From the UHGV virus genome UHGV-0186551: DNA of 38,300 nt; one strand, given 5' to 3'. The notes under the pieces were generated by a model. That model searched no databases. It worked only from the letters and a program-made list of their open reading frames with translations, and had not been told where the DNA came from. Position numbers and translations under genes: made by a program. The stretch is from a virus. Shown one piece after another: positions 4,495 to 31,896 of this stretch (the first letter of the stretch is position 1; each line of letters opens with the position of its first letter).

Positions 4495-6492
4495 CTATTC
4501 TGACAACGAATCAGACTTAGCCCCCTGCGTCAGAGCGTTAATTGCCTTTTGTGCCTGCTGCATTGCTTTCTCAAAGGCTGTTGATCCGCGTGGGGTGTTT
4601 GCCATTCTGAGCATTGCATTTCTGAATGGTTCGCTCTCATAGGCGCGAGTAAGAAGTCCGTAGCTTACTGCTGCGCCAGTTGTCGCCGGGTTCATTGCCG
4701 TCCCATACCCGATAATGAACGGGATGGTTTGCTGCCCTGTGGGTGTTGTTACTGCCGCTTTTGCTGCCTGCTGAGTGGACTGAAGGTAATTTTTCAATCC
4801 TTTCAGATAAGCAGCATCCTGCCCCTTAAATGTGATGCCAGTCTGGTTTTGCAGGATGTTAAGCTGCCGAAGGAACTGGTCAGGGGATCCGCCAGATTTC
4901 TCCATCGCCTTTCCAATGATGCCATTGCGCATTTGCGCCCTGCCAACACGACCAACTGAGTTATACAGCGTCTTAATTTCCGATTTGTTCTTGCTGAATA
5001 GCATGTTGTTGACAATTTCCGGTGTCAGGTCGCCTTTCATGAGAACATTCTTCAGCCTGGTATTCTTTAGTTTCGCCGCTTCGTCAGCGTAGACGGCATT
5101 GGCCTGCTGATATTTACGGAGAGTATCGTTGCCAAGATTATGACCAATGGCACCATTGATATCGTCGGTCATCGCCTTGTAAACGCGCTGAATGGCAGCA
5201 TCGGAACGGTTTGGTAACACTGGTCGCTCACCCTTCACGTCCATTCTGAACTGACTGCGCAGGTCGCTTAATTGCTTCAAATCCAGATTTACCGGACCAT
5301 CAGGGCCAGCATTGCGAACAAGCTCATCACGATATGACTGAAGTTTTGAAATTGTCTCGTTATCAGCCACCTTACCAAGCTTCTTCAGATTAGATATCTC
5401 AGTATCAATCTGCTGAATTGCTCGCGCAGGCTGGATATTGACTCCCGCCATTGCATTCTGAACCTGCTCAAGACGGTTCCCTGCAGCACGACGAATTCCT
5501 GATGTTTTCGCTTTAAGGCTGTCAATAACAACAGCTGGATCATACTCACCGAATTTATCAGCAAATCTCTGCACCAACTGGCTTCTCGCTTCCTGTTGCG
5601 TTGCTCTCATTCCGCTTGTGCCAGCCAGGGGGATATTTTCTGCTGTCGTTTGCGCCATTTTTCCGACGCGGGAAGTAGGCTGTAACAGGTCTGTGGTGTG
5701 CAGAGGCACTCCTTCACGCTCTGCAAATCTGATAGCTTGCTGCGCTTCTGGCGCAATAGCACCACGAACTCCACGATAAGCAGCACCTAATCCACGTCCG
5801 GCAGCGTTAATAGCACCGCCAGCCAGCACACCAACGCCCAAATCGGTGGCGAGTGCTTCCGCATCATCTTTCGCACTATTTGCAGCAAGTGATCCAACTG
5901 CGTTTTCTGCTAGAAGGCGAGTTGCCCCATGAGCAATTCGACCAGCAAGTGTTGGTGCCTGTGCTGCCGCTCTCTCAACGCCAGCAGGAGTGAGGTAAGG
6001 CAATGCTTCAGCAAATACCCTTCCCTCTGTCGTTTGTGGAGTCAGCGCGCCTTGCTGAAGGCCAAAGTCCTGCTCTAATCCCTGCGTTGTTACACGTGGC
6101 GCTGGTTGATATGTACCATCGCCAATGCCGAGTTTACCGCCAGCCCAAGCCGCCGCGCTTGTTACAGCATCGGCAACTGATGCAGGTATGTTTGCCACGT
6201 TCACGCCAGCCTGCACCAGTCCGCGACCAGTCTCTTTTACTGCTTCGCCAAGATCAGACATAAATCCACTTTGCTGTGGTTGTTGCTGTGCTACTGGTTG
6301 CTGTGTCTCCACTTGCTGCACATATGGCAATGGATAGGAAGCATAGAAAGCTTGCTTAGCCTGCTCTGCATTTTCTCCGGCTTGCGGGGCAACGACTTCA
6401 TTGAAGTATTGCTCCTGAGCCTGCGCTTTTTGTTCTGGTGCTAACGCCTGATACTGTGGAGAGGCGATAACATCTTTCCATGCTTTAGCCAT
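4495..6492 (-). CDS. Ejection/internal virion protein, P22 gp16-like
   Basis: 665-aa ORF in the gp16 position after gp20; Q/A-rich. Confidence 0.8.
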   Translation of the reverse strand: MAKAWKDVIASPQYQALAPEQKAQAQEQYFNEVVAPQAGENAEQAKQAFYASYPLPYVQQVETQQPVAQQQPQQSGFMSDLGEAVKETGRGLVQAGVNVANIPASVADAVTSAAAWAGGKLGIGDGTYQPAPRVTTQGLEQDFGLQQGALTPQTTEGRVFAEALPYLTPAGVERAAAQAPTLAGRIAHGATRLLAENAVGSLAANSAKDDAEALATDLGVGVLAGGAINAAGRGLGAAYRGVRGAIAPEAQQAIRFAEREGVPLHTTDLLQPTSRVGKMAQTTAENIPLAGTSGMRATQQEARSQLVQRFADKFGEYDPAVVIDSLKAKTSGIRRAAGNRLEQVQNAMAGVNIQPARAIQQIDTEISNLKKLGKVADNETISKLQSYRDELVRNAGPDGPVNLDLKQLSDLRSQFRMDVKGERPVLPNRSDAAIQRVYKAMTDDINGAIGHNLGNDTLRKYQQANAVYADEAAKLKNTRLKNVLMKGDLTPEIVNNMLFSKNKSEIKTLYNSVGRVGRAQMRNGIIGKAMEKSGGSPDQFLRQLNILQNQTGITFKGQDAAYLKGLKNYLQSTQQAAKAAVTTPTGQQTIPFIIGYGTAMNPATTGAAVSYGLLTRAYESEPFRNAMLRMANTPRGSTAFEKAMQQAQKAINALTQGAKSDSLSE

Positions 6493-20047: not shown

Positions 20048-20520
20048 ACCTCAATCTCTCTGACCGTTCCGCCCACTTCTTTGAATTTTGCAATCAGGCT
20101 GTCAGCCTTATGCTCGAACTGACCATAACCAGCGCCCGGCAGTGAAGCCCAGATATTGCTGCAACGGTCGATAGCCTGACGGATATCACCGCGATCAATC
20201 ATCGGCAAAGCGCCACGCTCCTTAATCTGCTGCAGTGCCACAGCGTCCTGACTTTTGGGAGAGAAGTCTTTCAGGCCAAGTTGCTTGCGGTAGGCATCCC
20301 ACCAACGGGAAAGAAGCTGGTAACGTCCGGCTGCTGTTGATTTGAGTTTTGGGTTTAGCGTGACAAGTTTGCGAGGGTGATCTGAGTAATCAGTGAATAG
20401 CTCTCCGCCAACAATGACGTCATAACCATGATTTCTGGTTTTCTGTCGTCCGTTATCAGTTCCCTCTGACCACGCCAGCATATCGAGGAACGCCTTACGT
20501 TGATTATTGATTTCCACCAT
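20044..20520 (-). CDS. R: Endolysin R (lambda-type lytic transglycosylase)
   Basis: 158 aa, [26 protein letters not shown]... recalled as lambda R. Confidence 0.95.
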
Positions 20521-20827
20521 CTTCTACTCCGGCTTTTTTAGCAGCGAAGCGTTTGATAAGCGAACCAATCGAGTCAGTACCGATGTAGCCGATGAACACG
20601 CTCGTTATATAAGCGAGATTGCTACTTAGTCCGGCGAAGTCGAGAAGGTCACGAATGAACCAGGCGATAATGGCGCACATCGTTGCGTCGATTACTGTTT
20701 TTGTAAACGCACCGCCATTATATCTGCCGCGAAGGTACGCCATTGCAAACGCAAGGATTGCCCCGATGCCTTGTTCCTTTGCCGCGAGAATGGCGGCTAA
20801 CAGGTCATGTTTTTCTGGCATCTTCAT
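20504..20827 (-). CDS. S: Holin S
   Basis: 107 aa, [20 protein letters not shown]... with dual-start Met1/Met3, recalled as lambda S. Confidence 0.95.
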
Positions 20828-27936: not shown

Positions 27937-28084
27937 GTTTCACTCCTGCTTTGGCTAGTCTGTAAACACCAACAAGGCGCTCTGCGAACGCCCTGTTATT
28001 TGCTGCGGCTACCACTAATCCCTCAGGTGAATCAGGGTGTCGAATCTCTTCTTTTTCCTGGTATTTCTTACGACGTTTTGTCAT
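27923..28084 (-). CDS. Possible small basic protein, 53 aa (MTKRRKKYQEKEE...)
   Basis: ATG at 28084 with AGGAG ribosome-binding site; overlaps O start by 14 nt; hand-translated. Confidence 0.3.
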   Translation of the reverse strand: MTKRRKKYQEKEEIRHPDSPEGLVVAAANNRAFAERLVGVYRLAKAGVKHGRR

Positions 28085-28119
28085 AATTACTCCTGTGGAT
28101 TGATACAGTCTTTCTACAA

Positions 28120-28398
28120 TCAGGCCTCAAAACTGTTGCCGCAGTCTTGAGGCTTTTCTTTTGTCAGCACCATGGCTACTTTCTTTGCCAGCTCCGCTAA
28201 TTCCTCGTCTTCAACACCCCACTCCAGCACAGCCAGAAGCATGGCCATCTTTGGGATAAAGCTGTCTTTCCATCGCGAAATTTGCGATTCATTGATCCCT
28301 AATGCATCAGCAACCTTTCGCTGACCACGTACAGCAATTCGATTTAGGATGTTGCTTGTAATTGCATTCGCTTTCTTGCGAGTACTTGTAAGTTGCAT
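28120..28398 (-). CDS. cII: Lysogeny establishment activator CII
   Basis: SQISRWK...MLLAVLEWGV motif as in lambda CII; start moved to ATG at 28398 (track start 28485). Confidence 0.85.
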   Translation of the reverse strand: MQLTSTRKKANAITSNILNRIAVRGQRKVADALGINESQISRWKDSFIPKMAMLLAVLEWGVEDEELAELAKKVAMVLTKEKPQDCGNSFEA

Positions 28399-28457
28399 AT
28401 GTAAGTATTTACTTAACAAATAAGAAGTTATGCGCATCAACTTATGCGCGTTGTATT

Positions 28458-28500
28458 CCCGCATTTCGGCGGGAATGAGGACCATGACTGTTAAAGAGCG
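28458..28500 (-). promoter_or_regulatory. nutR (boxA cgctctttaa, boxB hairpin cccgccgaaatgcggg)
   Basis: boxA/boxB read on the - strand between cro and cII; boxB identical to the nutL copy. Confidence 0.75.
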
Positions 28501-28506
28501 GTGTTA

Positions 28507-28701
28507 CTATTTGTTTTTCTTGTTGCTTGGGAAAGGACGAACTTCCTCTCCAATCACACTGCCATCAGGCTTTACCGTAACCATGATGTTACGGCCTGCC
28601 AGAATGGCCTTGCTGATAGCGCACTGGATTACACCAAAGTCACTGGCTGCTTTAGCCTGTCCATGGATTTTGGCGTAATCGGCAAGTGTCATTCGAATCA
28701 T
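28507..28701 (-). CDS. cro: Cro repressor
   Basis: TL.DYA...GQ.K.A.D.GV.Q.AI.KA...GR.I......DGSV..EEV.PFPSNKK as in lambda Cro; ATG at 28701 (track start 28707 is GTG). Confidence 0.9.
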
Positions 28702-28730
28702 ATGCACTCTCCGTTATTAACCATGAACAA

Positions 28731-28799
28731 AGAATACTACAGGTATTCAAAGCAATCAATACTCAGGGTATTTTTAGTTTAAGTACCTTAGCTATTAGA
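28731..28799. promoter_or_regulatory. oR/pR/pRM region: operators near gaatactacaggtattc (28732..28748), aatactcagggtatt (28758..28772), degenerate third (28783..28799); pR -10 28731..28736 and -35 28754..28759 on - strand
   Basis: Inverted-repeat operators sharing consensus with oL sites; pR -35 TTGATT, 17-bp spacer, -10 TATTCT; probable leaderless cI transcript. Confidence 0.65.
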
Positions 28800-28807
28800 A
28801 TTAAGCT

Positions 28808-29524
28808 ATGGAAAATAAAAAATCACTGACGACAGAACAGCTCGAAGACGCTAAGCGGCTTAAGGCTTTGTATGAGTCAAAAAAGAAAGAATTGGGAATA
28901 ACCCAATACTCAATCGCTGATGAACTGGGTATCACCCAAGGAGCGGTAGGGCATTATCTTAATGGCAGAAACGCGCTAAACGTTGAGGTTGCATCTGGTT
29001 TTGCACGATTGTTGCAAGTCTCAATTGCTGATTTTAGCCAGTCAATTGCTGCCAAGGTTGCAGAACAGGCAGAAAGCCTTAAGAGCGATGCCAACGTAAG
29101 GTATGCAGGGGAATACAGAGCAGGAAAGAGGTATCCGGTGTTAAGCAGTATCCAGGCTGGCTCGTGGTGTGAAGCATGCGAACCATACACCATTAAAGAC
29201 ATAGATGTTTGGCTTGAGTCTGACGCGCATATTCAAGGTAATGCGTTCTGGCTTAAAGTGGAAGGTGATTCAATGACGGCACCGGTTGGGTTAAGCATTC
29301 CAGAGGGAACATTCGTTCTTTTCGATACCGGAAGGGAGGCGATCAACGGCAGCTTGGTCATAGCAAAACTTTCTGACTCTAACGAAGCAACATTCAAGAA
29401 GCTGATAATCGACGGCGGAAATAAATACCTCAAGGGACTTAATCCTGCATGGCCTCTCGTGCCAATCAATGGAAACTGCAAGATTATAGGCGTTGCAATT
29501 GAGACAAAACTAAGGCTGGTTTGA
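28808..29524 (+). CDS. cI: CI repressor (N-terminal helix-turn-helix, C-terminal S24 LexA-like autocleavage domain)
   Basis: 238 aa; LTTEQLEDAKRLKALYESKKKELG... and AFWL.VEGDSMTAP as in lambda CI. Confidence 0.9.
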   Translation: MENKKSLTTEQLEDAKRLKALYESKKKELGITQYSIADELGITQGAVGHYLNGRNALNVEVASGFARLLQVSIADFSQSIAAKVAEQAESLKSDANVRYAGEYRAGKRYPVLSSIQAGSWCEACEPYTIKDIDVWLESDAHIQGNAFWLKVEGDSMTAPVGLSIPEGTFVLFDTGREAINGSLVIAKLSDSNEATFKKLIIDGGNKYLKGLNPAWPLVPINGNCKIIGVAIETKLRLV

Positions 29525-29541
29525 TCACGCAAGGGGCGATT

Positions 29542-29910
29542 ATGGTTGGAACCGCTATAGCAAGCTTTTTGGGGATGTTGGCAATCTCAACAATTTACGG
29601 CTTAGCGCATGCTTTTATTGCGAAATCTCTATCAGAAAAAATAAGCCAGGCTTGGGCGCATAGATCTGCTCGTTTCATGATTCTAGTGGTCATAGCAATA
29701 CAAGGGATATCTGCATTTATCCTCTATGGATCAAGCTTATACCTGTTGTATCAAGGCGCGACATTTACGCCTTACACCAGTGATTACGGAACTCTATACG
29801 ATGGTAGTGAAGACATCTCTATGGCTTGGATCGTCTTTGGTTTATCTATGGCCGTGTCTGTTGTAGCAGACATCATTAAGGTAATTCTCGTCTTAACCTT
29901 CGCTGACTAA
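29542..29910 (+). CDS. Multi-pass membrane protein co-transcribed with cI (rex-position cargo)
   Basis: ATG at 29542 with AAGGGG ribosome-binding site, 18 nt after cI stop; about four hydrophobic segments; track start 29521. Confidence 0.7.
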   Translation: MVGTAIASFLGMLAISTIYGLAHAFIAKSLSEKISQAWAHRSARFMILVVIAIQGISAFILYGSSLYLLYQGATFTPYTSDYGTLYDGSEDISMAWIVFGLSMAVSVVADIIKVILVLTFAD

Positions 29911-29999
29911 CCCATAATCCCGGCAGCAATAGCTATCGGGATCCACTTCACATATCCCGCATAAAAAGCACTGAACAAGCAGACACCGAAAAAAAATAA

Positions 30000-30085
30000 A
30001 TATCCTTTGTATTCATTTGCTTATCATTATTTCACCAAAAATAAATACCTTGGGTATTTACACAATAAAATACCTACAGTATTCT
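30000..30085 (+). promoter_or_regulatory. oL/pL: operators atatcctttgtattc (30000..30014), aataccttgggtatt (30044..30058), aatacctacagtatt (30069..30083); pL -35 TTTACA 30057..30062, -10 TATTCT 30080..30085
   Basis: Same operator consensus as oR; promoter geometry mirrors pR. Confidence 0.65.
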
Positions 30086-30130
30086 TTAGCCATCAGCAGG
30101 ACGCTGATAGCCAAACGGAACAGATTGGCA

Positions 30131-30171
30131 GGCTCTTTAACATTGATGGGATTGTCCCGCCGAAATGCGGG
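30131..30171 (+). promoter_or_regulatory. nutL (boxA ggctctttaa, boxB cccgccgaaatgcggg)
   Basis: boxA followed after a 16-nt spacer by the same boxB hairpin as nutR, upstream of N. Confidence 0.75.
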
Positions 30172-30279
30172 AACCAAAGAGTAGTTGGCTTTGGGGTGAC
30201 GTGAAGTTCAGCTGCACGACGGCAACCGGAAGATAAGCACCCGGCGCGTCACCGCCAAAGTCAATCATCGGAGGTCAAC

Positions 30280-30552
30280 ATGGCAGTAGTCATTACATTT
30301 CTGGCTGACGATAACGCCAGAAATCGCCGCAGAGCACGCAGACAGGCTCAACGTGAGCAGGCAATGCAAGAACAGCGACTGGCGCGAAAAATTGCGCTAA
30401 AGCTCTCTGGTTGCGTCAGAGCAGACAAAGCAGCATCACTCGGAAGCCTTCGCTTCAAGAAGGCAGATGAATGGAGTGGAAGTATTTGCCTGCCAAACGT
30501 AGCCATTTACGCGGCAGGCTACCGGAAATCAAAACAACTGACGGCGAGGTAA
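30280..30552 (+). CDS. N: Antiterminator N (arginine-rich-motif type)
   Basis: 90 aa; ARNRRRARRQAQREQ motif; first gene after pL/nutL; GGAGG ribosome-binding site. Confidence 0.8.
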   Translation: MAVVITFLADDNARNRRRARRQAQREQAMQEQRLARKIALKLSGCVRADKAASLGSLRFKKADEWSGSICLPNVAIYAAGYRKSKQLTAR

Positions 30553-30554
30553 TT

Positions 30555-30917
30555 ATGGGTCAGGAAGAAAAATATGAGCTTAAAAAGCTAATTGGAGAAG
30601 ACGCCATAGAAGAAATTGCAGCATTAACAACAGCTATAAAGAATATTAGGTATGCGCTAAATACGCTTATCTCCTCATGCGACAAAAATAGCAGGGAATT
30701 TTTGATACTTGGCGCAGCTCTAGGAATAGTTGATGCGGCAACGCTTCACCTAATTACTCATGACGATATTCTTATTGAGCCGTATGAAACATTACTGCTT
30801 GTCAGGCAAAAAATGGCTGATGCCGCAGCAAATGGAGACCTTCAACTTTACATCGACTTAAGGAAAGTATTAAGGCGAATGGTCAGAACTGAAGGAGATA
30901 TCCCCCTGACAAAATAA
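30555..30917 (+). CDS. Hypothetical protein, 120 aa (Ral-position accessory gene)
   Basis: ATG 3 nt after N stop with GAGG ribosome-binding site; track ORF 30471..30917 trimmed. Confidence 0.65.
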   Translation: MGQEEKYELKKLIGEDAIEEIAALTTAIKNIRYALNTLISSCDKNSREFLILGAALGIVDAATLHLITHDDILIEPYETLLLVRQKMADAAANGDLQLYIDLRKVLRRMVRTEGDIPLTK

Positions 30918-31100
30918 GGGGGTGAGAGGATTTTACTATTTTTCTCGCTGTAGGGGTACACGAGAACCACCGAGCCTGATGTGGTTAAAAGACAGGCACA
31001 ATCTTTACTACCGCAAGCCACGCAGTGAAATGGGCGTGACATGCTCAGGCCGCCAGAAGCAACGCGGAAAATCAATTCCAGCTTATTACGATTGAGGTTA

Positions 31101-31370
31101 ATGATGAAGTTCAAATTGAACGATGAAGTTAAATGGTCAAGCTCATCAAACGGTGTAACGAAGGTAAAAATCGGGTTTATCGTCGAGGTGATTCCTCCTG
31201 GTGTCAACGTAAAAAAATTCGAACTAGGCCGTCTGCTAGATGCACCTGGCCTTCCGAGGAAAGAAGAGAGCTATATAGTTTGTGTAGGTCCAAGACCCGG
31301 ATCTCGAGCCAAGCCAAAATATTACTGGCCGCGAGTTAATAACCTGCGTCACTTACACGATGACAAATAG
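31101..31370 (+). CDS. Hypothetical protein, 89 aa
   Basis: ATG at 31101 preceded by GAGGT; track ORF 31041..31370 trimmed. Confidence 0.55.
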   Translation: MMKFKLNDEVKWSSSSNGVTKVKIGFIVEVIPPGVNVKKFELGRLLDAPGLPRKEESYIVCVGPRPGSRAKPKYYWPRVNNLRHLHDDK

Positions 31371-31425
31371 AAGTGGATGTCATTGTTTTACTTTTTCGCA
31401 GCAAACCACTTATTTGAGGTGAGAT

Positions 31426-31896
31426 ATGACAAAATCATGGAGCGTACCTTTTCCTGAATCAGAAACTGAACATGATGGAATGCCTGTTTTCTGGAGATTC
31501 CAAGCAACAGTTGAAGAAGATGGAATCAAAATATTCGCACTTCAATATATAGCTTTTCATCAGACAGAGCATTATGCATGGTTGGTTCCTGCGCATTGGA
31601 TTGTTAATTTTAAACCAGCACCAAATCAGTGGTTACAGGAATGGAAACAAAATAGAAATAGATATGCAATTAAGAAAGTAGCAAAAAATGCAGAAAGATC
31701 TTTTGCGTTCCCGACGAAGAAACTTGCCATTGAAAGTTTATTGCGCCGGAAGAAATACCATTTGATGAGAATCAAACAAGATTTGGCTGTTGTATCAACT
31801 CTTGTTGATGGGATGAAGAATATTGATACATCAACACCAGATATTGAATATAACTTTGGACACAACCAAGAAACAGAAAATTGGGTGTTTTATTAG
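31426..31896 (+). CDS. Hypothetical protein, 156 aa, AT-rich accessory gene
   Basis: GAGGTGAG ribosome-binding site; AT-rich composition; followed by a 9-bp-stem hairpin at 31911..31938. Confidence 0.7.
   Translation: MTKSWSVPFPESETEHDGMPVFWRFQATVEEDGIKIFALQYIAFHQTEHYAWLVPAHWIVNFKPAPNQWLQEWKQNRNRYAIKKVAKNAERSFAFPTKKLAIESLLRRKKYHLMRIKQDLAVVSTLVDGMKNIDTSTPDIEYNFGHNQETENWVFY

Follow-up and report, generated by a model that had tools for sequence, protein, structure and literature searches.

hkaS, a small membrane-protein gene behind the cI repressor of the HK620-type immunity cassette, and its possible role in phage exclusion

The immunity region of UHGV-0186551

The virus genome UHGV-0186551 was analysed as one stretch of 38,300 nucleotides (hereafter, the window), and the subject of this report is the small gene that follows its cI repressor gene. 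An initial annotation, made from the sequence letters alone, had presented the gene as a fresh finding, but it is the hkaS gene of coliphage HK620, which has been annotated as 'unknown' since 2001. As described below, hkaS was found to be a conserved accessory gene whose product is predicted to lie in the inner membrane, and a role in excluding superinfecting phages is tentatively proposed.

The window is a P22-like lambdoid phage or prophage of mosaic make-up and a relative of HK620, and its virion genes are like those of other Lederbergvirus phages. The identity to HK620 is 98.5% across bases 28500-30600 and breaks off sharply just past the hkaQ gene, at about 30925 (window 30900-31460 compared with HK620 4901-5461). 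The window is distinct from HK620 itself. The features of its immunity region are as follows.

28507-28707, minus strand: cro
28732-28748, 28757-28773 and 28781-28797: right operators OR1, OR2 and OR3 in the cro-cI interval, 17-mers of the form AATACnnnnnGTATT, located where the HK620 annotation has them
28793-28798: candidate -10 element of pRM, TATTAG, which would put the transcript start beside the ATG of cI
28808-29524, plus strand: cI repressor of the HK620 immunity type, 238 amino acids (Pfam HTH_3, E=5e-24, and Peptidase_S24, E=8e-10; HK620 annotation)
29531-29536, plus strand: Shine-Dalgarno-like AAGGGG for hkaS, within the 17-nt cI-hkaS spacer (read from the sequence)
29542-29910, plus strand: hkaS, 122 amino acids (ATG at 29542, stop at 29910), accessory gene of the imm-HK620 cassette
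29917-29942, plus strand: stem-loop, 7 nt past the hkaS stop codon (RNAfold)
29998-30014, 30043-30059 and 30068-30084: operators OL3, OL2 and OL1 (located as operator repeats; HK620 annotation)
30057-30062 and 30080-30085, plus strand: pL, with -35 TTTACA and -10 TATTCT (promoter scan)
30280-30552, plus strand: N antiterminator, first gene of the pL operon and far edge of the cI-N slot (Pfam N_peptide, E=2.7e-15; PHROG 271)
30555-30917: hkaQ, 120 amino acids, directly after N (PHROG 7374, unknown function)

The order of cI, a membrane-protein gene, OL/pL and then N had been described correctly in the initial annotation, as had the position equivalent to that of rexAB, which lies behind cI in lambda. 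The hkaS gene is the sole gene between cI and OL3. No known RNA family was found in 28000-31000.

The hkaS gene and its conservation

The open reading frame (ORF) that had been pointed out at 29521-29910 on the plus strand exists. Its coordinates use a TTG start (129 amino acids) that overlaps the stop codon of cI, whereas conservation supports the ATG at 29542 as the start, and AAGGGG lies 6 nt upstream of it. The TTG start was rejected since it is not conserved in Salmonella or Hafnia: the Salmonella orthologue has an in-frame TAA immediately before the ATG and AAGGA at the same Shine-Dalgarno place, and the TTG of the Hafnia orthologue lies in another frame. Three database homologues (P0005, P0008 and P0009, with one or two member sequences each) have aberrant N-termini. 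By eye from the alignment, they look like rare variants in which the N-terminal 30-35 or so residues are in another frame.

It was found that hkaS is a real protein-coding gene under purifying selection. In 80 related viral-contig loci compared in this study, the gene is intact in every one. The length of HkaS is exactly 122 residues in every full-length orthologue checked, that is, five diverged orthologues and all 80 viral-contig copies. The ratio of nonsynonymous to synonymous substitution rates (dN/dS) of hkaS is 0.14-0.2 against the Hafnia and Salmonella orthologues, while dS is saturating between the E. coli and Salmonella copies. Between the window and Hafnia, dN/dS is 0.14 for hkaS and 0.03 for cI. 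Since the dS values of the two genes in this pair are equal (0.71 for hkaS and 0.73 for cI), cI and hkaS share a history and have been co-inherited.

HkaS is constrained far more loosely than the repressor. Within E. coli, the ratio of nonsynonymous to synonymous diversity (piN/piS) is 0.26 for hkaS versus 0.01 for cI. In the 79 loci that had sequence upstream and were used for the cI linkage, 26 HkaS protein alleles were counted versus 5 of cI, and the replacements in HkaS are mostly conservative hydrophobic swaps. When the window is compared with HK620, divergence is higher in hkaS than in the neighbouring cI (dS 0.048 versus 0.006; protein identity 95.8% versus about 100%), which suggests recombination within the cassette or a different allele history.

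Transcript context

The hkaS gene is on the same strand as cI and begins 17 nt after the cI stop codon. A consensus scan found neither a promoter nor a terminator in the spacer. By analogy with lambda, the element at 28793-28798 is a candidate for the -10 element of pRM; the consensus promoter scan did not pick it up. The stem-loop behind hkaS has 10 of 11 positions paired, a loop of AAUA and a dG of -13.7 kcal/mol, and it has no U-tract. The same stem-loop was predicted in all 13 distinct downstream sequences of related E. coli viral contigs. In Hafnia one G.U pair is replaced by A.U, and in Salmonella a different hairpin (dG -18.5) occupies its position. The intrinsic-terminator scan did not call the stem-loop. 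Since pRM, pRE and pL fire in the same direction, transcription has to be stopped somewhere before OL/pL, as in lambda. The stem-loop is a candidate for the 3′ end or terminator of the cI-hkaS transcript, equivalent to tIMM. The HK620 record puts tIMM at about 29990-30020, overlapping OL3, and no convincing hairpin was found there.

Distribution of hkaS and its linkage to cI

Is hkaS common, and does it always accompany the same repressor? The gene was found in 146 of 5426 complete E. coli genomes (2.7%), from many sources and always on the chromosome. In all 25 matches listed, which were spread across the ranking, the product is annotated as a 'hypothetical protein'. The same type of cI lies directly upstream of hkaS in 79 of 79 contigs, with a gap of 17-19 nt and a cI identity of about 100%. 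A Salmonella prophage has the same arrangement, with 86% identity to the window for cI and 59% for HkaS, and so does a Hafnia prophage, with 95% and 81%, respectively. The identity of N is just 23-38% in the Hafnia and Salmonella loci while that of cI is 86-95%. Thus, a recombination boundary lies between hkaS and N.

The cI-hkaS cassette is not confined to one kind of virion. It was found in Lederbergvirus (HK620), Lambdavirus (HK630), Hendrixvirinae (HK140 and mEpX2, two genera) and Sepvirinae (phi296), and two Stx2c (Shiga toxin) phages also carry it. Thus, the cassette has spread over four virion lineages, and in every context examined the HK620-type cI stands directly before hkaS.

Anatomy of the HkaS protein

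Hydropathy scans with the Kyte-Doolittle and Hessa scales found three hydrophobic segments in HkaS, at about residues 3-27, 45-70 and 94-121. An AlphaFold model built with ten homologues (mean pLDDT 92.8) has three long helices (2-29, 41-74 and 89-121). It also contains an amphipathic helix, which is short and lies at 31-38, and loop 2 holds a small beta-hairpin. Both the scans and the model bear out the initial annotation in that the product is a membrane protein, but the number of about four hydrophobic segments given there was too high; as a control, the same scan recovers four segments in lambda RexB. Loop 1 has four Lys and Arg residues and loop 2 has none, while loop 2 has four Asp and Glu residues. 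From this distribution and the positive-inside rule, the N-terminus and loop 2 would be periplasmic, and loop 1 and the C-terminus cytoplasmic. HkaS is therefore predicted to be an integral inner-membrane protein with three transmembrane (TM) helices in an N-out/C-in topology. The possibility that TM1 is a cleavable signal peptide was rejected; orthologues do not conserve the AHA sequence at residues 22-24, and a basic n-region is lacking.

The best-conserved parts of HkaS are distributed over both loops and the helices. The cytoplasmic loop, 17 residues in length, is basic and has the conserved sequence KISQAWAHRxARF. The periplasmic loop is acidic and rich in Tyr and Gly, with the conserved sequence YQGATFxPYxSxYGxxYxG. 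The C-terminal part has the conserved sequence DIxKxIxVLTFAD, in which D110 and K113 are invariant and lie within the membrane in TM3. TM1 has a ladder of small residues, G3-x3-[A/G]7-x3-G11, and the helices have polar stripes. There is no soluble domain, and the protein ends (...VLTFAD) where TM3 ends. Thus, HkaS should act in or at the cytoplasmic membrane.

Relatives of HkaS

HkaS belongs to PHROG 6534 (E=2.6e-78), a family of 'unknown function'. There was no credible match in Pfam, NCBIfam or PADLOC, the last including models of known and candidate anti-phage defence systems. GtrA, SMR and other small-membrane-protein families of Pfam were considered, and nothing appeared at E<=1 except two insignificant matches, Cation_ATPase_C (0.0074) and TssN (0.037), both of which are far below the gathering scores. 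A word-indexed search of 5.8 billion proteins gave 11 clusters, with identities down to 55%, and every cluster derives from material of E. coli, Hafnia or Salmonella. When 1.84 billion representatives were searched exhaustively with a profile, only the cluster of HkaS itself was recovered, along with three weak matches judged to be spurious, namely a 44-residue fragment of hkaS itself, a repetitive protein of 309 residues and a protein of 5949 residues. A sequence search of the PDB gave nothing, and three fold searches gave generic helical bundles only. As far as these searches go, HkaS is an ORFan with no relatives outside its own small family.

HkaS was also compared directly with lambda RexB and RexA, P22 SieA, SieB and gp17, 434 Hex and HK620 HkaP, and all the comparisons were insignificant. 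Homology to RexB was rejected (BLASTP E=5.7; three versus four TM helices), as was homology to Hex. Kinship with the P22 gp13 holin was also rejected: the identity is 26% over 65 residues, but 19 of 200 composition-preserving shuffles did equally well and the composition-corrected E-value is 0.17. No homologue of RexA, RexB, SieA, SieB or gp17 was detectable anywhere in the window (for RexA, tblastn gave nothing at E<=1), so the absence of a RexA-like partner, which had been noticed earlier, was confirmed.

Judging from these comparisons, HkaS is not a member of the RexB, SieA, Hex or holin families, although it resembles each of them in some respect. Like rexB, hkaS lies after cI and before OL/pL and N, on the strand of cI and presumably on the pRM/pRE transcript, and both genes encode small polytopic inner-membrane proteins (144 residues for RexB and 122 for HkaS). 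Unlike RexB, HkaS has three TM helices rather than four, shows no sequence similarity to it, has no RexA partner in the operon or in the window and no PADLOC match, and no internal pLIT-like promoter was detected for hkaS in the promoter scan. The specific resemblance to RexB that had been suggested thus does not hold.

The nearest characterised immunity module is that of 434, where the cI is related (52% identical) and is likewise followed directly by one accessory gene, hex, on the pRM transcript. The proteins are unrelated; the annotated Hex has 134 residues with a signal-peptide-like segment at the N-terminus and has no TM bundle. Hex as annotated (lambda imm434 2409-2813) starts with MIRIAALLSILLTTSANSEC..., which resembles a Sec signal peptide. 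This start is hard to reconcile with the published cytoplasmic role of Hex, and a GenBank note states that the paper inferred the wrong start codon.

BstA and the 933W Stk kinase are single-gene anti-phage systems encoded downstream of cI and expressed from the cI promoter (PMC8585504, PMC7067206, PMC3564112). In contrast to HkaS, which is a minimal membrane protein, they are described by soluble-protein activities, and neither appeared in the HkaS profile search. P22 SieA belongs to the prophage- or phage-expressed class of small inner-membrane proteins that act alone, and it blocks DNA delivery by interfering with ejection proteins (PMC10461980). However, neither SieA nor SieB shows homology to HkaS (blastp E>=2.5; profile search null). 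The genomic settings differ as well: sieA has its own promoter and is a neighbour of the ejection-protein genes, while hkaS moves as part of the immunity cassette and is found in four virion lineages. HK97 gp15 and T4 Imm are also inner-membrane superinfection-exclusion proteins. Class I holins have three TM helices in an N-out/C-in topology, and HkaS is predicted from its charges and hydropathy to share this layout. Unlike them, HkaS has no charged cytoplasmic C-terminal tail, and hkaS is not in a lysis cassette next to an endolysin gene; the holin of the window is a P22 gp13 homologue encoded at 20507-20824.

The cI-N slot and its other occupants

Many lambdoid phages have accessory genes on the pRM transcript (PMC3564112), and the cI-N region is a known mosaic hotspot, as stated by the authors who described BstA (PMC8585504, PMC7067206). 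RexAB of lambda excludes T4 rII, and Stk of 933W, which is a tyrosine kinase of the eukaryotic-like type, aborts HK97 infection (PMC3564112). Hex of 434 is co-transcribed from pRM and excludes P22. It also stabilises lysogeny by blocking RecA-stimulated cleavage of the repressor, and its loss raises spontaneous induction (PMC3564112). Downstream of cI in BTP1 lies the gene for BstA, and its transcription came from the cI promoter in 17 of 17 conditions; BstA aborts infection (PMC8585504, PMC7067206), and it localises to sites of phage DNA replication (PMC8585504). Thus, the proposal that the slot holds lysogen-expressed exclusion genes has strong published precedent in rexAB, hex, stk and bstA (PMC3564112, PMC8585504, PMC7067206), while the analogy drawn with RexB in particular was over-specific.

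I compared the slot among relatives of the window. It is empty in Serratia OS31 and mEp213, whose cI proteins are 71% and 51% identical to that of the window, and also in 720R6, SEN22 and P22. In 434 and Sf101 (cI 52% identical), hex lies behind cI. In the Stx phage TL-2011c (3388-5678), a DNA methyltransferase gene and a restriction endonuclease gene lie behind cI on the same strand, that is, a restriction-modification system occupies the rex position. Enterobacter phage BHUENT3 (2170-2886) has two unannotated genes behind its cI, and the C-terminal domain of this cI is a close relative of that in the window. The first encodes 127 residues with two Cys-x2-Cys pairs, and the second encodes 109 residues that include a stretch rich in Gly, a heptad-like repeat and, at the C-terminus, a TM helix. 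Since the slot is empty behind the cI genes of OS31 and mEp213, hkaS is an accessory rather than a core gene.

By position, hkaS is a pRM-linked accessory gene of the cI-N slot, and every feature of this class that can be examined in silico was found. The gene is on the same strand between the cI stop codon and OL3/pL, no promoter or terminator intervenes, a stem-loop follows at the 3′ side, and the gene is dispensable or replaced in relatives.

Proposed function

I propose that HkaS is a lysogen-expressed inner-membrane phage-exclusion protein. From the position of the gene and the anatomy of the protein, the chance that this is correct seems to be a little short of even. In this proposal, hkaS would be an accessory ('moron') gene of the HK620-type immunity cassette, and its transcription, shared with cI, would start at pRM in the lysogen and at pRE while lysogeny is being established. 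The protein would insert into the inner membrane with the N-terminus out and the C-terminus in, and would there exclude superinfecting heteroimmune phages. An anti-phage role is suggested by the record of the slot, by the maintenance of a dispensable gene, by the purely membrane-embedded design, and by the lack of any other superinfection-exclusion (Sie) or Rex gene in the window. Because the window is devoid of a SieA, SieB, gp17 or Rex homologue, hkaS has no recognised exclusion gene as a rival for the role.

How might such a protein work? The favoured mode, which on a rough estimate is possible but rather doubtful, is a Sie-type block of genome passage across the inner membrane, via the ejection or tape-measure proteins of the incoming phage or via a host entry factor. 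A constitutive protein without a sensor suits a passive block better than a triggered response. In addition, the only sizeable conserved element that is exposed faces the periplasm, which is the side where ejection and tape-measure proteins arrive. The product of a cassette found in four virion lineages must be harmless to many lytic programmes after induction. A suicide channel with a broad trigger would satisfy this requirement less well than would an entry block or a trigger specific to unrelated phages. The second mode, a triggered membrane-leak or abortive-infection effector, is on an equally rough estimate unlikely. I therefore lean toward an entry block over a triggered leak.

Several observations weigh against exclusion as the function of HkaS. 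Neither homology nor fold searches matched it to any defence, Sie or Abi (abortive infection) protein, and neither a paper on hkaS, its accessions or its PHROG nor a transcriptome of an imm-HK620 lysogen was found. The stem-loop after hkaS lacks a U-tract, and pRM was assigned by analogy with lambda. The piN/piS of hkaS is 26-fold higher than that of cI, indicating a much weaker constraint. Guilt by position is a weak argument, since Hex of 434, from the closest characterised immunity module, also stabilises lysogeny (PMC3564112). As for the entry block, the known entry blockers such as P22 sieA adjoin the virion genes that they target, outside the immunity region, and the small-residue ladder and the buried Asp/Lys pair of HkaS would also suit an oligomeric channel.

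A wider reading, which is on the unlikely side, is that HkaS is the founder of a single-gene family of self-sufficient, sensor-less, three-helix membrane defence proteins, tied to one repressor type and protecting lysogens whatever their virion. Such a protein could close a common route of genome entry at the inner membrane, or could be a glycine-zipper oligomeric channel gated by a component of the incoming phage.

Alternative explanations

The alternative that survives best, though it too is unlikely, is the triggered mode in the form of a RexB- or holin-like Abi effector. HkaS would oligomerise, for example through the glycine-zipper-like motif of TM1, into a latent channel. Infection by particular phages would then open it, which would collapse the membrane potential and abort the infection. 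The gene occupies the same slot as rexB, and three of the four published occupants (rexAB, stk and bstA) act after entry by aborting infection (PMC3564112, PMC8585504). The conserved G3-x3-[A/G]7-x3-G11 ladder, the polar stripes and the invariant D110 and K113 are also what a channel might have, and the three-TM N-out/C-in layout is that of class I holins. However, there is no similarity to RexB, that to the P22-type holin is insignificant by the shuffling described above, and the helices number three rather than four. HkaS has no sensor partner, no soluble domain and no charged C-terminal tail typical of holins. As there is no RexA, the conserved loop on the cytoplasmic side, or else some factor of the host or of a phage, would have to sense the trigger. 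A broad trigger would also endanger the many lytic programmes with which the cassette is combined, and no self-immunity element is evident.

It is rather improbable that hkaS is a moron gene for host physiology, whose product modulates a transporter, a sensor kinase or an envelope stress response and aids the fitness of the lysogen in the gut, with no role in conflict between phages. Its carriage by 2.7% of complete E. coli genomes of varied origin and its maintenance in intact form would agree with this, and lambda has lysogen-expressed genes of such a kind in bor and lom (PMC7067206). Nevertheless, no characterised occupant of the cI-N slot is of this type, and the sequence indicates no host target.

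A Hex-like modulator of lysogeny stability or induction, which serves the prophage switch by, for instance, dampening spontaneous induction, is still less probable. The closest characterised cI relative (52% identical) has Hex in the same slot, loss of Hex, which is expressed from pRM along with its repressor, increases spontaneous induction (PMC3564112), and hkaS is tied to a single cI type in all the loci seen. However, HkaS is unrelated to Hex, and being nearly all embedded in the membrane, with a cytoplasmic loop of 17 residues, it has an unlikely route to RecA or cI. Moreover, the cI relatives at 71% and 51% identity do without hkaS. Finally, a conserved but currently functionless passenger, retained through lying within the cI transcription unit, would be in keeping with the many conservative changes tolerated (piN/piS 0.26 versus 0.01 for cI), the ORFan status and the narrow host range, but it is a poor candidate in view of the 80 of 80 intact copies with no length variation, the dN/dS of 0.14-0.2, with dS saturating in the E. 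coli-Salmonella comparison, and the invariant loop motifs and intramembrane charged residues.

Significance

The cI-N slot is among the best-expressed positions of lambdoid prophages, and every characterised occupant (rexAB, hex, stk and bstA) has an anti-phage function. The hkaS gene is an unstudied occupant. Besides about 2.7% of complete E. coli genomes, Shiga-toxin phages and prophages of Salmonella and Hafnia carry it. To specialists, a known but uncharacterised ORFan in a known hotspot is no conceptual surprise. Should HkaS prove to exclude phages, a very small membrane defence consisting of one gene would be missing from the current defence-finder libraries, and it would bear on the prediction of host range for phage therapy and on how immunity cassettes take defences from one phage lineage to another. 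Otherwise, the slot would have its first occupant shown not to be anti-phage.

Neighbouring genes

The svsR small RNA paper (PMC12803456) was considered and set aside; it concerns a different, icd-integrated prophage with no link to hkaS. The hkaQ gene is present in just 9 of 80 related loci, and the AbiH-like Pfam match of its product is insignificant (E=0.16). Past hkaQ, the hkaP gene of HK620, a putative SieB-like exclusion gene, is missing from the window. In its place there are unrelated small ORFs on the plus strand, such as those at 31041-31370 and 31426-31896.

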